Part shown: positions 1-4,506 of the stretch, one piece after another | How the letters are laid out: each line of letters begins with the position of its first letter | Position numbering within the stretch: the stretch's first letter is position 1 | IMG/VR virus record: IMGVR_UViG_2585427793_000002 | Span: 1-4,506 of that record | Source of the DNA: a virus | Taxonomy: Duplodnaviria; Heunggongvirae; Uroviricota; Caudoviricetes | DNA length: 4,506 nucleotides | Direction: 5' to 3' (one strand) | The notes under the pieces: model-generated | The model's input: only the letters and a program-made list of their open reading frames with translations | Database searches by the model: none | What the model was told of the DNA's origin: nothing | Position numbers and translations under genes: made by a program

Positions 1-619
1 GCCAGACCGAGCCTTCAATACGTTTGTCGCCAAGGAACGTCGGAGAGCCTTCCTGTTCAATATCCTCATCAAAGGCAGCAAGTTCATCATAACCCGCCAC
101 ATCCACCGACTTTTCACGGTAGTTTTTTGCCGCTTTACCGCCCAGGCACCAGAAGCCACGACCATTGGAAAAACGCTTCATAGTGAGCGTGTTATCCCGG
201 TGCTTTTTGCCATACCACGGAGCCAGCGCCAGCAGCGACGGAATATCGCGGATGGTCGGCTCAACGTGGGTTTTCATAAAGTTCTCGGCATCACCATCCG
301 TCGGCAACCAGATAAGGGTGTTGCGCTGCTTATGCTCTATAAAGTAGGCATAAACACCCAGCAGCATTTTGGAATAACCGACACGGGCAGACTTCACCAC
401 ATTCACCTCACGGATGTAGTCGCTGCCCATCGCATTCATGATGGCCCGCTGAAAGGGCAGTGTTTCCCAGCGCCCTTCCTGGTATGCGGATTCTTTCGGG
501 AGATAGTAATTAGCATCCGCCCATTCAACGGCGGTCTGTGGCTCCGGCCTGAACAGTGAGCGAAGCCCGGCGCGGACAAAATGCCGCAGCCTGTTAACCT
601 GACTGTTCGATATATTCAC
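1..619 (-). CDS. A: Terminase large subunit gpA, N-terminal 206 codons (rest of gene lies beyond window position 1)
   Basis: Reverse complement from the GTG at 619..617 translates to (V/M)NISNSQVNRLRHFVRAGLRSLFRPEPQTAVEWADANYYLPKESAYQEGRWETLPFQRAIMNAMGSDYIREVNVVKSARVGYSKMLLGVYAYFIEHKQRN... and leaves the window as ...FDEDIEQEGSPTFLGDKRIEGSVW, matching lambda gpA as I recall it. The GTG start lies 26 nt inside the 3' end of Nu1, as in lambda. The ORF runs off the window edge, so it is absent from the supplied ORF track. Confidence 0.93.
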   Translation of the reverse strand, partial: MNISNSQVNRLRHFVRAGLRSLFRPEPQTAVEWADANYYLPKESAYQEGRWETLPFQRAIMNAMGSDYIREVNVVKSARVGYSKMLLGVYAYFIEHKQRNTLIWLPTDGDAENFMKTHVEPTIRDIPSLLALAPWYGKKHRDNTLTMKRFSNGRGFWCLGGKAAKNYREKSVDVAGYDELAAFDEDIEQEGSPTFLGDKRIEGSVW

Positions 620-1139
620 TCAGCAACCCCGGTATCAGTTCATCCAGCGCGGCTGCTTTGTTCATGGCTTTGATGATATCCCGTTTCAGGAAATCAACAT
701 GTCGGTTTTCCAGTTCCGGAAAACGCCGCTGCACCGACAGGGGGATCCCGTCGAGAATACTGGCAATTTCACCTGCGATCCGCGACAGCACGAAAGTACA
801 GAATGCGGTTTCCACCACTTCAGCGGAGTCTCTGGCATTCTTCAGTTCCTGTGCGTCGGCCTGCGCACGCGTAAGTCGATGGCGTTCGTACTCAATAGTC
901 CCTGGCTGGAGATCTGCCTCGCTGGCCTGCCGCAGTTCTTCAACCTCCCGGCGCAGCTTTTCGTTCTCAATTTCAGCATCCCTTTCGGCATACCATTTTA
1001 TGACGGCGGCAGAGTCATAAAGCACCTCATTACCCTTGCCACCGCCTCGCAGAACGGGCATTCCCTGTTCCTGCCAGTTCTGAATGGTACGGATACTCGC
1101 ACCGAAAATGTCAGCCAGCTGCTTTTTGTTGACTTCCAT
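594..1139 (-). CDS. Nu1: Terminase small subunit gpNu1 (181 aa, complete)
   Basis: ORF-track protein MEVNKKQLADIFGASIRTIQNWQEQGMPVLRGGGKGNEV...LLSEYIEQSG is lambda Nu1 essentially residue for residue (one L->I at ...ILDGIPLSV..., from memory). ATG at 1139..1137 is preceded by the lambda-type leader GTCCGTGGAATGAACA. It lies directly downstream of cosB. Confidence 0.96.
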   Translation of the reverse strand: MEVNKKQLADIFGASIRTIQNWQEQGMPVLRGGGKGNEVLYDSAAVIKWYAERDAEIENEKLRREVEELRQASEADLQPGTIEYERHRLTRAQADAQELKNARDSAEVVETAFCTFVLSRIAGEIASILDGIPLSVQRRFPELENRHVDFLKRDIIKAMNKAAALDELIPGLLSEYIEQSG

Positions 1140-1164
1140 TGTTCATTCCACGGACAAAAACAGA

Positions 1165-1278
1165 GAAAGGAAACGACAGAGGACAAAAAGCCCGTTTTCA
1201 GCATCTGTCGTTTCCTTTCTTTTCAGGGGGTGTTTTAAATAAAAACATTAAGTTACGGCGAAGAAGAACGGAAACGCC
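1165..1278. other. cosB terminase (gpNu1) binding region: R1, R2, IHF site I1 region, R3
   Basis: Three copies of the R-element core CGTTTCC/GGAAACG: R1 1165..1180 (rc TCTGTCGTTTCCTTTC), R2 ~1205..1218 (rc AAAGGAAACGACAG), R3 1263..1278 (rc GGCGTTTCCGTTCTTC). An AT-rich block at ~1230..1258 (rc ...TAACTTAATGTTTTTATTTAAAA...) sits where lambda has the IHF site I1. Sequence and spacing follow lambda cosB as recalled, with a few SNPs and a 1-nt indel between R2 and R1. Confidence 0.8.
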
Positions 1279-1311
1279 TTAAACCGGAAAATTTTCATAA
1301 ATAGCGAAAAC

Positions 1312-1333
1312 CCGCGCGCCTTCCGCCCCGTGG
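1312..1333. other. cosN (terminase nicking site) region, variant sequence
   Basis: Placed by position next to R3. Reverse complement of 1311..1331 reads ACG GGGCGG AAGGCG CGCGGG, versus lambda ACG GGGCGG CGACCT CGCGGG (memory). The segment equivalent to the 12-nt cohesive end is 1317..1328. Actual nick positions cannot be established from sequence. Confidence 0.6.
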
Positions 1334-1682
1334 CAGGCCACCCCACCGGAAGGACCCTCACAAATGAGAGCGTTTGTCATTAACATTTACAGATAAGATG
1401 ACGTACATCATTGAAACGCCATTCAGCCATATACCGGCAGCATTCGTAGTTGCACTCCGTAACTCTGCGACTAAGGTTAAAAACATGGCCCTCTTTTGCC
1501 ACCGGCAAATCTTCAATGGATTTCCCCTGCCGGTTTTTTATTTTCGTCGATGCATAACATTGCATTTACATCAATAGCGGCTATTGTCATTAGTATGTTG
1601 CATCAATGCATGGGTGGTATTGGCGGTCTTCGCCGGCCGCTTCTGTGTAGCTGCTCCCTGTGACCGGTTTTTTATTTCTCAC

Positions 1683-1719
1683 ATTACAGCAACCCCTTAG
1701 AGTGAAGGGCTGCTGTAAT
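1683..1719. other. Stable stem-loop (about 14 bp stem, 6-nt loop) just 3' of the 131-aa gene; not a canonical terminator
   Basis: ATTACAGCAACCCCTT (1683..1698) pairs with AAGGGCTGCTGTAAT (1705..1719) with one mismatch and one bulge around loop AGAGTG. It starts 6 nt downstream of the stop at 1725..1727 on the - strand. No T/U tract follows it on either strand. Confidence 0.5.
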
Positions 1720-1724
1720 GCCTG

Positions 1725-2120
1725 TTACTCACGAATCAGGCGAGCACTCTTACTATTCATTTCAATACGCGAATACTGCGGTTTACCATCAATGATGTCT
1801 GTCATTACGAACACCTCACCCGGCTGCAGTTCAACTGCACCTTCCGGTAATTTCATACCGGCAAATACCGGACAACCCGGATGACGATCATCTTCTGTTG
1901 CTTCCAGCATTGACTCACCAAACCACTCCGTCGTGGCGCGACCATCAGCTGCTTTGTAGTGGATCAAGTACTGGTTTTCGCCATCCGCATACTGCGCGCG
2001 GGCTTTAACCTCACCCCATTCATCACTGATACGCATCTCCACCAGTTGAGACAACTCAAACTTAAACGGAGCAGCATCAGCACCAATTACAATCGGTTTG
2101 TTTTCTGTTTTTTCCATCAT
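1725..2120 (-). CDS. Hypothetical acidic protein (131 aa), function unknown
   Basis: ORF-track ORF 1725..2168 trimmed to the tandem ATG ATG at 2120..2115 (MMEKTENKPIVIG...), which is preceded by AGGAGA (rc of 2124..2129). The upstream ATG at 2168 has no Shine-Dalgarno. By my count 24 Asp+Glu versus 15 Lys+Arg; no TM segment, no signal peptide, no motif I recognise. Confidence 0.7.
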   Translation of the reverse strand: MMEKTENKPIVIGADAAPFKFELSQLVEMRISDEWGEVKARAQYADGENQYLIHYKAADGRATTEWFGESMLEATEDDRHPGCPVFAGMKLPEGAVELQPGEVFVMTDIIDGKPQYSRIEMNSKSARLIRE

Positions 2121-2291
2121 CGTCTCCTGATATCGAAGCCCGTCGCCGCACCGGGCACTGATCAACATTTGAGTATTCGCGGCGACAGAAAGAATTTATT
2201 TTATTGAGTAGCCACAAACACAGAATTTCATGCTTACCGGACGCTGGCGCATCCTTCATTTTTCAGCAAAATATTCTGCTCTTACAGGCGA

Positions 2292-2474
2292 TCAGTTCTG
2301 CAGACACTGCCGAACACCGTCGACAATTTCACAGACCTGAGACGCGGTATCGAAAAGCTGGCGCGCCTTATCCAGGCTGACGCACCCCACCAATAAAAAA
2401 GGCACCAGTATCGCTACCAGTGCCCGTTTCACCGCCGTTCGCGGCATTCTGTGTGTCCAGTGTTTTCGCGCCAT
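2292..2474 (-). CDS. Putative small lipoprotein (60-aa precursor, ~30-aa mature)
   Basis: N-terminus MARKHWTHRMPRTAVKRALVAILVPFLLVG|C has a basic n-region, hydrophobic core and lipobox L-V-G-C (Cys31). The mature part CVSLDKARQLFDTASQVCEIVDGVRQCLQN has three Cys. The ATG at 2474 is 1 nt after the stop of the upstream 37-codon ORF and preceded by GGTGGTGAT. Confidence 0.55.
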   Translation of the reverse strand: MARKHWTHRMPRTAVKRALVAILVPFLLVGCVSLDKARQLFDTASQVCEIVDGVRQCLQN

Positions 2475-2475
2475 A

Positions 2476-2589
2476 TCACCACCAACGCACAGCCCAAATC
2501 AGAACAGCGACCGCCACAAGGCGAATTGCAAAGGCCGCAGCCCTTGTCAAATCAAGGCTCGCGGGAGTTTCCATTTCAATACCTTTCAT
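2476..2589 (-). CDS. Putative 37-aa membrane mini-protein (MKGIEMETPASLDLTRAAAFAIRLVAVAVLIWAVRWW)
   Basis: Found by hand translation; below the ORF-track size cut-off. ATG at 2589..2587 with GAGG 9 nt upstream; C-terminal hydrophobic helix; TGA stop at 2478..2476 sits 1 nt before the lipoprotein ATG, suggesting translational coupling. The short length makes it uncertain. Confidence 0.3.
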   Translation of the reverse strand: MKGIEMETPASLDLTRAAAFAIRLVAVAVLIWAVRWW

Positions 2590-2671
2590 AATGGACAACC
2601 TCAAAAAGAATCTTTTATACTTTCCCACGAGGATTTTCTCCCTACTCACTAATCACAATTTCCCCTTTGAC

Positions 2672-2719
2672 GTGAAAACTAAAAACCCCGGACTGTTCCC
2701 CCAGCCGGGGTTTTGTTTT
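2672..2719. terminator. Bidirectional rho-independent terminator immediately downstream of the endolysin gene
   Basis: GC-rich inverted repeat CCCCGG...CCGGGG (2686..2710; about 9 bp stem with one bulge) flanked by AAAAA (2681..2685) on the left and TTTTGTTTT (2711..2719) on the right. On the - strand the hairpin is followed by UUUUUAGUUUU and on the + strand by UUUUGUUUU. It begins 11 nt after the endolysin stop codon. Confidence 0.72.
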
Positions 2720-2721
2720 AC

Positions 2722-3099
2722 TTATCGCTTCAGCTGAAAGTGAGGTCCGTCTTTCAGCGTTTTCCAGTCCCCGCCCCATTCGATAGCGATCCCCAGCTCT
2801 GCGGCAGCCTGCTTAAATGCCTGTGCGATTTTCTCGTACAGAGGCCACTCCCATGACACCTGACTGCCAATGTAGGCCACAACATCCACCGCATCACCGG
2901 TCAGGTGGCGGCTGTTCATGGTCTGGCTTTTCCCTTCCGCAACCAGCTGTTTCTGGCGATACTTACTGCGCAGGCCTTCCGTAATACCGAAATCAACCTC
3001 CGTCAGCTCCAGCGCACGGCGAACTACAGCAACCAGCTGTGGTTTGACACCCTCCAGATTTTTTTCACTGCGACGGCTGAATCTGAATTTACCCGGCAT
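2722..3099 (-). CDS. Endolysin, L-alanyl-D-glutamate endopeptidase (peptidase M15 family, phage T5 Lys-like)
   Basis: 125 aa from the ATG at 3099 (GAGGTG 5 nt upstream; the ORF-track start at 3105 is a GTG two codons earlier). It carries a Zn-ligand pattern typical of M15 peptidases, SRHLTGDAVD ... WGGDW ... DGPHF, and overall resembles the small T5-type endolysin as I recall it. No signal peptide or SAR domain, consistent with holin-dependent release. It is the last gene of the cassette before the terminator. Confidence 0.85.
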   Translation of the reverse strand: MPGKFRFSRRSEKNLEGVKPQLVAVVRRALELTEVDFGITEGLRSKYRQKQLVAEGKSQTMNSRHLTGDAVDVVAYIGSQVSWEWPLYEKIAQAFKQAAAELGIAIEWGGDWKTLKDGPHFQLKR

Positions 3100-3101
3100 A
3101 T

Positions 3102-3377
3102 TCACCTCAACAATGGAAAGATTTTTGTGACGTTCCCGCGTGCGCGTATCACCAGCACGCAGAACAGCAGATTAAAAAACACTTCCAGCCAGCCCGTTGC
3201 TAACGGGCGACCACACAGATAGCTGAGGGGCGCAAAGGCATACAGCAGCATCAGCAGCCAGGCCAGCCATGACACCAGCGGTTTATGTCTGGAATCACGG
3301 CGACGATAAAAAAAGAGCGTCAGCACGATAACCGTGCATAACGCCACATTCAGCAATCCGGGAAGGTTACTTAACAT
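3102..3377 (-). CDS. Small 3-TM membrane protein of the lysis cassette (putative holin or antiholin), 91 aa
   Basis: ORF-track ORF 3102..3431 trimmed to the internal ATG at 3377..3375 (MLSNLPGLLNVALCTVIVLTLFFY...), which has a strong GGAGGAGG box 5-8 nt upstream; the track start at 3431 would overlap the upstream gene by 65 nt. Three hydrophobic helices and a basic C-terminus (RARGNVTKIFPLLR). Its TGA stop (3104..3102) abuts the endolysin start. Confidence 0.6.
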   Translation of the reverse strand: MLSNLPGLLNVALCTVIVLTLFFYRRRDSRHKPLVSWLAWLLMLLYAFAPLSYLCGRPLATGWLEVFFNLLFCVLVIRARGNVTKIFPLLR

Positions 3378-3759
3378 TGCCGCCTCCTCCACCCCGCAGG
3401 CGGGAGAACACACCGGACACCAGCGATGCAATATCCTGCTGGTGGATGAACGAGAGAATCTTCACCGACACCACCGAGACCAGCACCGCGCAAAGCGCAT
3501 CTGCTGATGTACCGTCATACCCTGTTTTTGATGCAATCCAGGCTGACAGCACACGCGCTCCCAGCACGCCGACAATAAACGACACCAGAAAATGTGCCAC
3601 CACGCGCCAGACTGAAAGTGACTGTGGCATCGTTGCCACAAATAACGCCCCGGCGAACGCGCCAAACACAATCCCGAAATCCATTCCGGTAAACAGCCCG
3701 AATACCGTCGCGCCACCCAGCGCCGCAGCCGTGCCGGAACCGGATAAGGGTTCAGACAT
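3367..3759 (-). CDS. Gly/Ala-rich 4-TM membrane protein, putative holin (130 aa)
   Basis: ATG at 3759 preceded by AGGAGG (rc of 3764..3769). About four hydrophobic helices (TAAALGGATVFGLFTG, FGIVFGAFAGALFVA, VVAHFLVSFIVGVLGARVL, ALCAVLVSVVSVKILSFI) and a Gly-rich charged tail. It is the first gene of a cassette ending in an endolysin, and its 3' end overlaps the next gene by 11 nt. Holin role is inferred from context, not homology. Confidence 0.65.
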   Translation of the reverse strand: MSEPLSGSGTAAALGGATVFGLFTGMDFGIVFGAFAGALFVATMPQSLSVWRVVAHFLVSFIVGVLGARVLSAWIASKTGYDGTSADALCAVLVSVVSVKILSFIHQQDIASLVSGVFSRLRGGGGGNVK

Positions 3760-3815
3760 ACTTCCTCCTGAAAATAAAAAAGGGCCACCAGCGACCCGTA
3801 AAAAAACACCCCGTC

Positions 3816-3837
3816 AAAGGCATCCGCAGATGCCTTT
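3816..3837. other. Perfect hairpin (9-bp stem, 4-nt loop) in the spacer between the small ORF and the holin gene
   Basis: AAAGGCATC (3816..3824) - CGCA - GATGCCTTT (3829..3837). On the - strand RNA the stem is followed by GACGGGGUG and only then U7, so it is not a textbook intrinsic terminator. Confidence 0.45.
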
Positions 3838-3846
3838 TGTGTGATG

Positions 3847-3999
3847 TTATTCAGATTTACGCAGTAAAGGCCGGAGCACGACCAGCGCCATCACCACCAG
3901 CACACCATCTGCCAGCACCGACATCAGTCGTCCGGTGAAATCAACCACCACTACCAGAAACAACAGGATGACAGCCAGCACAAGGCGCGCACTTTTCAC
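3847..3999 (-). CDS. Putative 50-aa two-helix membrane protein (GTG start), translationally coupled to the TerB-like gene
   Basis: Found by hand translation; below the ORF-track size cut-off: (M)KSARLVLAVILLFLVVVVDFTGRLMSVLADGVLVVMALVVLRPLLRKSE. The GTG at 3999..3997 overlaps the upstream TGA stop (GTGA), with GGAG 8 nt upstream. Two hydrophobic helices and a charged C-terminus. No ATG start with a comparable ribosome-binding site. Confidence 0.35.
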   Translation of the reverse strand: MKSARLVLAVILLFLVVVVDFTGRLMSVLADGVLVVMALVVLRPLLRKSE

Positions 4000-4421
4000 A
4001 GGTACTGCTCCAGCGGCAACTGCAGCGCCTGCGCAATTTTCTTCAGTTGCGCTTCTTCTTCCTGAGCGATACCGTCCTGGTCAGCGATATCCAGACACAG
4101 GCACAGCACATTAACTGCATCATCAGTACCGGCAACATCAGCCAGCTGACGAAGAGCTTCGGCATTGGCAGAACGCGGCGACGCTTCATAACGGGCGCGG
4201 ATATTTGCACTCATTTGTGCAATCTCACCGGAGAACGGCGCAAAGGCAGGAAGTGCTGCAATGGTTTTTTCCAGTACCGCGATTTCTTTCGCGTCACAGG
4301 TGCCGTCAGCGTATGCAATGGAGTACGCGCCCCAGACGGTCGCCTCCACTGCGTCACGGTTCTCCATCTTCTTCACTTCGGTAATGGCCTTGCGGGTTTT
4401 CTTTTTGAAAATACCAAACAT
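3996..4421 (-). CDS. TerB-like (tellurite-resistance TerB family) helical protein, 141 aa
   Basis: ATG at 4421 with AAGGA about 9 nt upstream. The N-terminus MFGIFKKK and two 'hydrophobic-x-DG-x(3-5)-acidic' repeats (AYADGTCDAKEIAVLEK and ADQDGIAQEEEAQLKKIAQALQL) follow the pattern I recall for TerB (compare SDGNFDDDEKSAVREIARSLGF in plasmid TerB). Assignment is by pattern recognition only. Confidence 0.7.
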   Translation of the reverse strand: MFGIFKKKTRKAITEVKKMENRDAVEATVWGAYSIAYADGTCDAKEIAVLEKTIAALPAFAPFSGEIAQMSANIRARYEASPRSANAEALRQLADVAGTDDAVNVLCLCLDIADQDGIAQEEEAQLKKIAQALQLPLEQYL

Positions 4422-4506
4422 CGTGACTTTTCCTTTTAGTGGGTGAGCCTGCGCCCGGGGGTGACCAGCCCACAGAGAAAGTCACACTGACCATCCCGTA
4501 AGCTCA

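Follow-up and report, generated by a model that had tools for sequence, protein, structure and literature searches.

The lysis module of phage lambda, S-R-Rz/Rz1, follows a three-step order of holin, endolysin, and an outer-membrane step, the last carried out with a Pro-rich 40-aa lipoprotein, Rz1, that is encoded in an embedded frame; the P2-type LysB/LysC pairs (LysC, PF23793) couple a lipoprotein with a Pro-rich linker of about 40 residues (the outer-membrane or o-spanin) to an overlapping LysB-type inner-membrane partner (the i-spanin). Single gene products for the outer-membrane step are known as well, namely the T1 gp11 u-spanin and the phiKT gp28 disruptin, and about 13% of the phages of Gram-negative hosts have no identifiable spanin (PMC6139136). 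The closest described relative of the locus studied here is the Stx2e phage phiP27 (NC_003356), whose genes L28-L29-L30 are annotated "holin, holin, endolysin" and which Kongari et al. (2018) listed as having a separated ("sep") two-component spanin, the shortest in their set (32 + 30 periplasmic residues; i-spanin at 20348..20542, o-spanin at 20706..20861). The same study counted 31 genomes that have a lipoprotein and lack a linked i-spanin; therefore the lone-lipoprotein situation was already recognised, though unexplained. We analysed the lysis region in positions 1 to 4,506 of the IMG/VR record IMGVR_UViG_2585427793_000002 (Caudoviricetes; this whole 4,506-nt stretch is the window in what follows), and propose, with a probability of roughly 0.7, that it is a phiP27-type late lysis cassette of four genes in which an orphan o-spanin-like lipoprotein occupies the spanin slot (Table 1).

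The lysis region is the catalogued phiP27-type cassette of Escherichia coli lambdoid prophages, and not the new arrangement for which a first, sequence-only reading of this DNA could be taken. It is about 91% identical in nucleotide sequence to L28-L29-L30 of phiP27, it also matches phiSTEC1575-Stx2k and vB_Apl-pPE4, and Pfam and PHROG have families for its proteins; prophages of sequenced E. coli match the whole window at 98.5% identity, and there its genes carry names given by the Prokaryotic Genome Annotation Pipeline (PGAP). The three open reading frames of 130, 91, and 125 aa on which the sequence-only reading was built are real and correctly placed on the minus strand, which carries all genes of the window. 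Similar to the window, phiP27 has two holin-family genes, an M15 endolysin gene, and the lipoprotein gene in identical order, and the 122-aa downstream gene too; it differs in the position of its cassette behind stx2e and in the packaging and tail module around it, which is of another (P27) type. Among 5426 complete E. coli genomes, 364 carry the holin pair, at a total of 611 places; for the lipoprotein the corresponding counts are 306 genomes and 488 places. Two records deserve mention on their own account: PP818812.1, recorded as "Actinobacillus phage vB_Apl-pPE4", shares about 92% identity in this region with prophage DNA of E. coli, which is odd for a Pasteurellaceae host, and a Cronobacter malonaticus locus (L008, 2489-3217) has a gene for a Pertussis_S1/Scabin-like ADP-ribosyltransferase immediately upstream of holin 1, in the slot held by stx2e in phiP27, where it looks like toxin cargo.

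Table 1. Features of the window around the lysis cassette (SD, Shine-Dalgarno sequence; ORF, open reading frame; TMD, transmembrane domain).
Feature	Position	Strand	Remarks
TerB/TciA-like gene, 141 aa	4421..3996	-	upstream of the lysis cassette
DUF3927/TciB-like gene, 50 aa, two TMDs	3999..3847	-	overlaps the TerB/TciA-like gene
Two terminator-like hairpins	3772..3833	-	precede the cassette, lying between the DUF3927 gene and holin 1
Holin-family protein 1, 130 aa, Phage_holin_8	3367..3759	-	PF16931, phrog_198, AGGAGG SD
Holin-family protein 2, 91 aa, Phage_holin_3_7	3102..3377	-	PF05449, phrog_217, three TMDs
Predicted endolysin, soluble M15 (LAS-fold) L-alanyl-D-glutamate endopeptidase, 125 aa	2722..3099	-	PF13539, phrog_465
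Strong terminator-like hairpin, A-tract and U-tract flanks	2676..2722	-	immediately follows the endolysin stop
Small accessory membrane ORF, 57 aa (GTG 2649; PGAP 37 aa, ATG 2589)	2476..2649	-	phrog_4493 (9e-24), phrog_1115 (3.5e-11)
Prolipoprotein, 60 aa	2292..2474	-	lipobox LVG/C31, phrog_7528, spanin slot
Acidic 122/147-aa ORF, conserved	2168..1725	-	phrog_1935, no Pfam family, no TMD
cos region			between the 122/147-aa ORF and Nu1
Nu1, lambda-type packaging	1139..594	-	PF07471 (9e-101); followed by the start of gpA

The sequence-only reading had ended the lysis module at position 2672 and had stated that no embedded or overlapping lipoprotein ORF lies within or after the endolysin gene. 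Both statements have to be revised: a scan of all six frames from every possible start codon recovered exactly one lipobox ORF in the window, 2474..2292 on the minus strand, 248 nt past the endolysin stop, so that the earlier boundary cuts the cassette short. The N-terminus of this prolipoprotein reads MARKHWTHRMPRTAVKRALVAILVPFLLVG up to the lipobox Cys, and the mature part has 30 residues. The protein matches phrog_7528 at 1.5e-35, and its gene is real and under purifying selection, with a ratio of nonsynonymous to synonymous polymorphism (pN/pS) of 0.38 in frame compared to 0.95 and 1.41 off frame, and of 0.31 for the mature part. The 136 clusters of its family come without exception from Enterobacteriaceae, with identities of about 70% or more; the signal-peptide core and the lipobox are invariant, and two cysteines (C48 and C57) are kept in at least 90% of the members, which come from four genera. 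The residue at +2 is Val (there is no Asp at +2), in agreement with an o-spanin lipobox. An AlphaFold2 model shows one long helix (residues 12-59; predicted local distance difference test, pLDDT, 72), and the mature part is amphipathic (hydrophobic moment 0.35, reached by 4.6% of shuffles); it shows a heptad-like a/d pattern, is about 4.3 nm long, carries a net charge of -1, and contains no proline. In the phiP27 RefSeq record, a CDS in another frame (L32, 20630..20785) masks the conserved lipoprotein ORF (20673..20861), which is likewise unannotated in pPE4.

The slot in which this gene lies is where more distant relatives keep their spanins. We sampled 80 distant loci from species-representative genomes of many Enterobacterales genera, with an alignment of eight closer family sequences as the query. 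Among the loci in which holin 1 is at most 52% identical to that of the window, the window-type lipoprotein is never present. Downstream of their endolysins (GH19-like, GH108, or a 159-aa lysozyme-like enzyme), 44 of the ~70 that have enough sequence show an ORF with an N-terminal TMD and an embedded or overlapping lipobox ORF by automatic scoring, and 16 further loci an i-spanin-like ORF only; in the three of these 16 that we inspected by hand (L036, L074, and L082) an o-spanin is present and had been missed by the strict filter. For example, Pfam identifies Rz (PF03245, 9e-41) and an embedded Rz1 (PF06085, 8.5e-13) in the Enterobacter locus L020, and a LysC-type o-spanin (6.5e-15) in the Erwinia locus L074. 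L020 has an equivalent holin pair and shares with lambda and the window the order of holin(s), endolysin, and outer-membrane step, whereas the window has, in place of Rz1 and its partner, a helical lipoprotein and no i-spanin. Loci with a holin-1 identity of at least 66% and enough downstream sequence all have the 60-aa lipoprotein and no spanin pair (17/17), a co-occurrence that is biased, as these loci were largely gathered via the lipoprotein itself; unbiased support for the lipoprotein in this slot comes from the loci L001, L002, L016, and L017 and from the E. coli counts (488 vs 611 places). Synteny thereby identifies the lipoprotein gene as the predicted fourth gene of the cassette, in the spanin position.

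The lipoprotein's N-terminal region points to its likely origin. Its stretch RKHWTHRMPR resembles the corresponding part of LysC-type o-spanins (RTHWTHRQPR in Erwinia L074 and RSHWTHREPR in Raoultella P0392; motif RxHWTHRxPR), and the likeness extends through the signal-peptide region: profile-profile alignment with hhalign pairs residues 2-34 with the LysC N-terminus (93% probability, E = 2.6e-7). Because this region is common to both, a reasonable, although unproven, ancestor of the lipoprotein is a LysC-type o-spanin from which the Pro-rich linker and the LysB partner were lost; both are missing in the window.

Because the nested spanins of LambdaSo were at first overlooked, the search for a partner covered every frame exhaustively. 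In the window it found no embedded Rz1 frame (in line with the sequence-only reading), and no frame encodes an i-spanin-like protein, taken as one with an N-terminal TMD followed by at least 40 residues; the 16.5-kb prophage locus is equally devoid of one, and the complete phiP27 genome yielded only the StxB signal peptide and two antisense artefacts; as a positive control, the same scan recovered Rz and Rz1 in L020. The earlier statement that there are no canonical spanin genes is thus correct as far as the i-spanin is concerned, but it passed over a conserved lipoprotein in the spanin position, the phiP27 orthologue of which is the very protein listed as o-spanin by Kongari et al. (2018). 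Downstream of the lipoprotein gene there is no conserved partner, and the content is variable (a 122-aa protein, HNH, IS66, Ivy, ParB). A 68-aa ORF with an N-terminal TMD in Cronobacter was considered as a downstream partner and is unique to that locus. The Ivy (inhibitor of vertebrate lysozyme) gene is found in Citrobacter (L011-L013, 5410-5832), after the lipoprotein gene and between the cassette and Nu1.

The junction between endolysin and lipoprotein genes varies greatly among cassettes, and in the commonest arrangement the two genes are coupled or at most 15 nt apart. In four divergent E. coli prophages with three downstream modules, the lipoprotein starts 14 nt past the M15 stop, with an AGGTG SD, and in Salmonella it starts 15 nt past that stop; Citrobacter and another contig have a GH108/PG_binding_3 enzyme in place of M15, and there the endolysin and lipoprotein genes overlap by 4 nt (stop and ATG, as ATGA). 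Sixty evenly spaced E. coli records matching the junction comprise 30 that are contiguous, 16 with a short insert similar to the window's (including that of enterotoxigenic E. coli, ETEC, H10407), and 14 that match on one side only. Homology between the window and phiP27 runs to the endolysin stop and resumes about 17 nt ahead of the inner lipoprotein ATG, and the segments between are unrelated. The junction is an insertion hot spot (seen also in L001, 3282-3760) with at least five unrelated fillings. It may hold nothing; a hairpin and the 57-aa TMD ORF (window 2476-2722); a 90-aa ORF on the opposite strand (phiP27); a KilA-N gene (pPE4, L002 2755-3532) or a KilA-N-like 186-aa ORF (Salmonella L016, 6215-7083); or 67-aa and 44-aa TMD ORFs (Cronobacter L008, 4498-5000). 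Since the lipoprotein stays across endolysin types and junction inserts, the stable unit is holin, holin, endolysin (of interchangeable type), and lipoprotein. As a separate observation, the E. coli W-type M15-lipoprotein junction occurs at 100% identity in NZ_CP026085.1, a record labelled E. coli DH5alpha; this is unexpected in a K-12 derivative, and the record may be mislabelled.

In the window, the first part of the 248-nt insert is the hairpin that follows the endolysin stop (minimum free energy -21.9 kcal/mol, z = -4.4; none of 200 shuffles folds as well), which was also picked up by the terminator scan. The hairpin segment is missing from contiguous cassettes and unrelated to the phiP27 segment at the equivalent place. 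The 57-aa ORF that comes after it is basic at its N-terminus and closes with a single C-terminal TMD, beyond which about two residues would be periplasmic; its stop lies 1 nt before the lipoprotein ATG, and it is translationally coupled to the lipoprotein gene. A homologous 67-aa ORF occurs at the equivalent junction in Cronobacter, and ORFs of this type are missing from most cassettes; it is an optional insert and not a core cassette gene. As an i-spanin it was rejected on its C-terminal TMD, its basic N-terminus, and its absence from most cassettes. We also considered the insert as a type I toxin-antitoxin module, in view of the small hydrophobic ORF, the bidirectional hairpin, and a sigma-70-like site on the plus strand (2592-2621) that overlaps the ORF start; there is one consensus promoter match, fewer than in shuffles, and no Rfam family, and the likeness of the layout to such a module is faint.

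Both membrane proteins of the cassette fall into holin families. The 130-aa protein matches PF16931 (3.3e-23, 82.6 bits with a cutoff of 26.4; residues 1-124 on profile positions 1-121) and phrog_198 "holin" (2.8e-42), and PGAP names it "putative holin". Kyte-Doolittle hydropathy, by which all TMD segments were called, gives strong segments at 26-44, 53-71, and 88-106 and a weaker, Gly/Ala-rich N-terminal one at 9-25, and an AlphaFold2 model of low confidence (pLDDT 56) has helices at 7-24, 28-43, 50-79, and 83-122, ahead of the C-terminal tail RLRGGGGGNVK. Clustering of 1.84 billion proteins at 50% leaves Phage_holin_8, a small family, with 145 representatives. The 91-aa protein matches PF05449 (2.1e-21, 76.2 bits with a cutoff of 25.4) and phrog_217 (2.9e-38), and PGAP names it "phage holin family protein"; its TMDs (5-23, 34-52, and 59-77), a basic first loop (YRRRDSRHK), and a basic tail (RARGNVTK) lead to a predicted N-out/C-in topology, as in a class-I-like holin. 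The helix counts of the sequence-only reading (four and three) are therefore plausible, and its gene junction holds up as well, the 91-aa ATG overlapping the 130-aa stop by 11 nt (ATGTTAAGTAA) with the internal SD GGAGGAGG before it. A dual-start holin/antiholin motif in the 91-aa gene was considered, because a GTG five codons upstream is open here and also in phiP27; that GTG lies within the GGAGGAGG SD and lacks one itself, which leaves a dual start unsupported.

Holin 2 adjoins holin 1 in 73 of the 80 distant loci. Most likely the pair is a two-component holin in which the main hole is formed by the 91-aa protein; alternatively, the two may divide their roles as holin and antiholin, and we agree with the sequence-only reading that sequence does not decide which of the two forms the hole. 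Indirect functional evidence comes from porcine Shiga toxin-producing E. coli (STEC), in which deletion of a gene nearly identical to the 130-aa gene abolished the enrofloxacin-induced release of Stx2e, and a plasmid copy restored it (PMC12571312, 2025). We found no other functional evidence for Phage_holin_8 or Phage_holin_3_7 in the literature, where a search for the two Pfam families turned up a single genome note.

The third gene encodes the 125-aa enzyme, whose ATG lies 2 nt past the TGA of the 91-aa gene, so that the two genes abut as had been read; an alternative GTG start at 3105 overlaps the 91-aa stop (GTGA). The protein matches PF13539 (Peptidase_M15_4, 7.8e-13) and phrog_465 "endolysin" (1.3e-75), and is named "M15 family metallopeptidase" by PGAP. 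Its closest solved homologue is ChiX of the Serratia marcescens ChiWXYZ type 10 secretion system, which is derived from a lysis cassette; ChiX, like the putative endolysin here, works with a holin, and ChiWXYZ differs in being a chromosomal secretion operon. ChiWXYZ also includes the Rz/Rz1-like ChiY and ChiZ. The matches in PDB are ChiX (5OPZ, 6.6e-44), 8Q2G (2.7e-43), and the T5 endolysin (2MXZ, 7.8e-24), and the closest solved relatives are all L-Ala-D-Glu endopeptidases, with ChiX about 60% identical. Residues R44, H65, D72, D117, and H120 align with R47, H68, D75, D120, and H123 of ChiX, that is, the H-x6-D...H zinc triad, the catalytic Asp, and the substrate Arg are all kept. ChiX has been characterised biochemically as an L-Ala-D-Glu endopeptidase with the zinc ligands H68/D75/H123 and the catalytic D120 (PMC5778951), and the 125-aa protein probably cuts the same bond in peptidoglycan stem peptides. 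Because hydropathy shows no hydrophobic segment, signal, or signal-anchor-release (SAR) sequence in it, it is predicted to be a cytoplasmic, holin-dependent endolysin of the canonical and not the SAR type. Homology thus indicates two holin-family proteins and a soluble M15 zinc peptidase with a ChiX/T5-type active site, a module that is non-lambda (not S-R-Rz/Rz1), as the sequence-only reading proposed.

Taken as a working cassette, these genes would act as follows. The overlapping, translationally coupled genes would make both holin-family membrane proteins, which would accumulate in the inner membrane and, on triggering, form lesions that pass the folded peptidase to the wall (the general holin-endolysin model), where it would cleave the stem peptides; the lipoprotein would then carry out or help the outer-membrane step without a dedicated i-spanin. 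We rate this contribution of the lipoprotein at a little less than an even chance. It might contact a periplasmic holin loop, or perturb the outer-membrane leaflet in the manner of colicin lysis lipoproteins. These have about 28-33 mature residues and permeabilise the envelope on their own. The likeness of the window lipoprotein to them (Lysis_col, or bacteriocin release proteins) is one of size and type, and it has no Pfam hit to them at E <= 0.1 and another genetic context. A single gene product for the outer-membrane step would also recall the T1 u-spanin and the phiKT disruptin; the lipoprotein is a member of neither group, since gp11 has a C-terminal TMD whereas the only hydrophobic segment here is the signal peptide, and gp28 is a cationic non-lipoprotein peptide whereas the protein here is lipid-anchored and of charge -1.

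A bolder version of this proposal, which we regard as possible but rather doubtful, sees in the lipoprotein a new kind of outer-membrane disruptor that works as one component, namely a lipid-anchored amphipathic helix of 30 residues, capable of disulfide formation, that derived from a LysC-type o-spanin and took the place of the whole two-component spanin. Such a protein would need no i-spanin, would act directly on the outer membrane or via a periplasmic part of one of the two holin-family proteins, and would be spread over a successful clade of enterobacterial temperate phages including the Stx2e phage P27 and the ETEC H10407 and E. coli W prophages.

Several points weigh against the proposal that the lipoprotein serves in lysis. 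A mature helix of 30 residues, with the length and charge given above, is too short to span the periplasm and does not qualify as a cationic membrane-active peptide. The protein has no Pfam family at E <= 0.1, and so neither Rz1 (PF06085) nor LysC (PF23793), and no NCBIfam model matches it (the NCBIfam search as a whole returned no useful names). The mature part can be aligned by eye in the expected way with the conserved C-terminal helix of LysC (Cys, G-[IV]-R), but the similarity is not significant (P = 0.04, probability 1.3%) and we make no claim of homology there. The 17/17 co-occurrence carries the sampling bias described above, and in the window the endolysin and lipoprotein genes are separated by a strong terminator, so that their co-expression rests on an assumed Q-type read-through. 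As to the holin, the kanamycin-resistance (KanR) replacement in the deletion of PMC12571312 could be polar on downstream genes. Finally, the junction attracts unrelated inserts, and the lipoprotein could therefore itself be cargo.

This last point leads to the rival that survives best, although we consider it improbable: the cassette would have three genes and no spanin, the lipoprotein would be an unrelated moron (for example, one for exclusion or host interaction), and the outer membrane would rupture without a dedicated protein or via an unrecognised one. The terminator that splits the endolysin from the downstream genes, the collection of morons at the junction (KilA-N, small TMD ORFs, the 90-aa ORF), the lack of a match to spanin-family hidden Markov models, and the ~13% of Gram-negative-host phages that have no identifiable spanin (PMC6139136) all fit such cargo. 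It accords less well with the close coupling of the two genes in the commonest arrangement, with the persistence of the lipoprotein beside the holin pair when both the endolysin type and the packaging module change, with its location exactly at the spanin position of relatives, and with its LysC-like N-terminus.

Much less probable is decay, in which the lipoprotein would be what is left, without function, of a LysC-type o-spanin after loss of the i-spanin and of most of the o-spanin, and lysis would be less efficient or would rely on shear or on the spanins of co-resident prophages. Decay would suit the facts that demonstrable likeness to LysC is confined to the N-terminal region, that the mature part, with 30 residues, is far below the length of any other o-spanin in the tables of Kongari et al., and that several lambdoid prophages are often present in one E. 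coli genome (up to 7-9 places per genome); yet the mature part is under purifying selection, the lipobox is invariant and the two Cys are kept across four genera, translational coupling is kept, and the clade is a successful one, with its 611 cassette copies in 364 complete E. coli genomes. Least probable of all is the separated two-component spanin that Kongari et al. (2018) read here, with the lipoprotein as o-spanin and, as i-spanin, a small TMD protein encoded between it and the endolysin (64 aa in phiP27, which would correspond to the 57-aa ORF of the window): the listing of phiP27 as "sep", the 1-nt spacing between the 57-aa ORF and the lipoprotein gene, and the homologue of the 57-aa ORF in Cronobacter speak for it, but the phiP27 i-spanin looks spurious because it has a TTG start and no PHROG family and lies antisense to the 90-aa ORF (phrog_36812) in a phiP27-specific insert unrelated to the window, the 57-aa ORF is not homologous to it and has its TMD at the extreme C-terminus, and about half of the E. 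coli cassettes as well as those of Salmonella and Citrobacter lack any ORF between the endolysin and lipoprotein genes.

The surroundings of the cassette are those of a lambdoid prophage with, as had been read, lambda-type packaging genes, and its Q/late-operon context comes from the annotation of neighbouring genes. Upstream, the DNA of the TerB/TciA-like and DUF3927/TciB-like region (3847-4421) is about 80% identical to phage P1 tciA, and the same pair of genes also precedes the cassette in Salmonella and some E. coli prophages. Of the hairpins between this pair and holin 1, the terminator scan matched 3797..3782, followed by TTTTTTATTT; Q-modified late transcription would need to read through them. 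On the other side, the ORF between the lipoprotein gene and cos (1725-2168) is common to phiP27 (L33) and some other prophages.

The three genes of the sequence-only reading add nothing new, being database-named copies of the phiP27 cassette, and the interest of the locus lies in the lone lipoprotein. Common prophages of E. coli, Salmonella, and Citrobacter, including a Shiga-toxin phage, keep a tiny lipoprotein in the slot where their relatives have a two-component spanin, without an inner-membrane partner, and the published call of phiP27 as the "shortest two-component spanin" (Kongari et al., 2018) is corrected accordingly. The gene sits in a genetically easy host, for which a lambda Rz/Rz1 complementation assay is ready, and the question bears on the release of Stx2e from porcine STEC. 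If it is true that the lipoprotein suffices for the rupture of the outer membrane, it would be a third genetic solution after the spanins and the disruptin.

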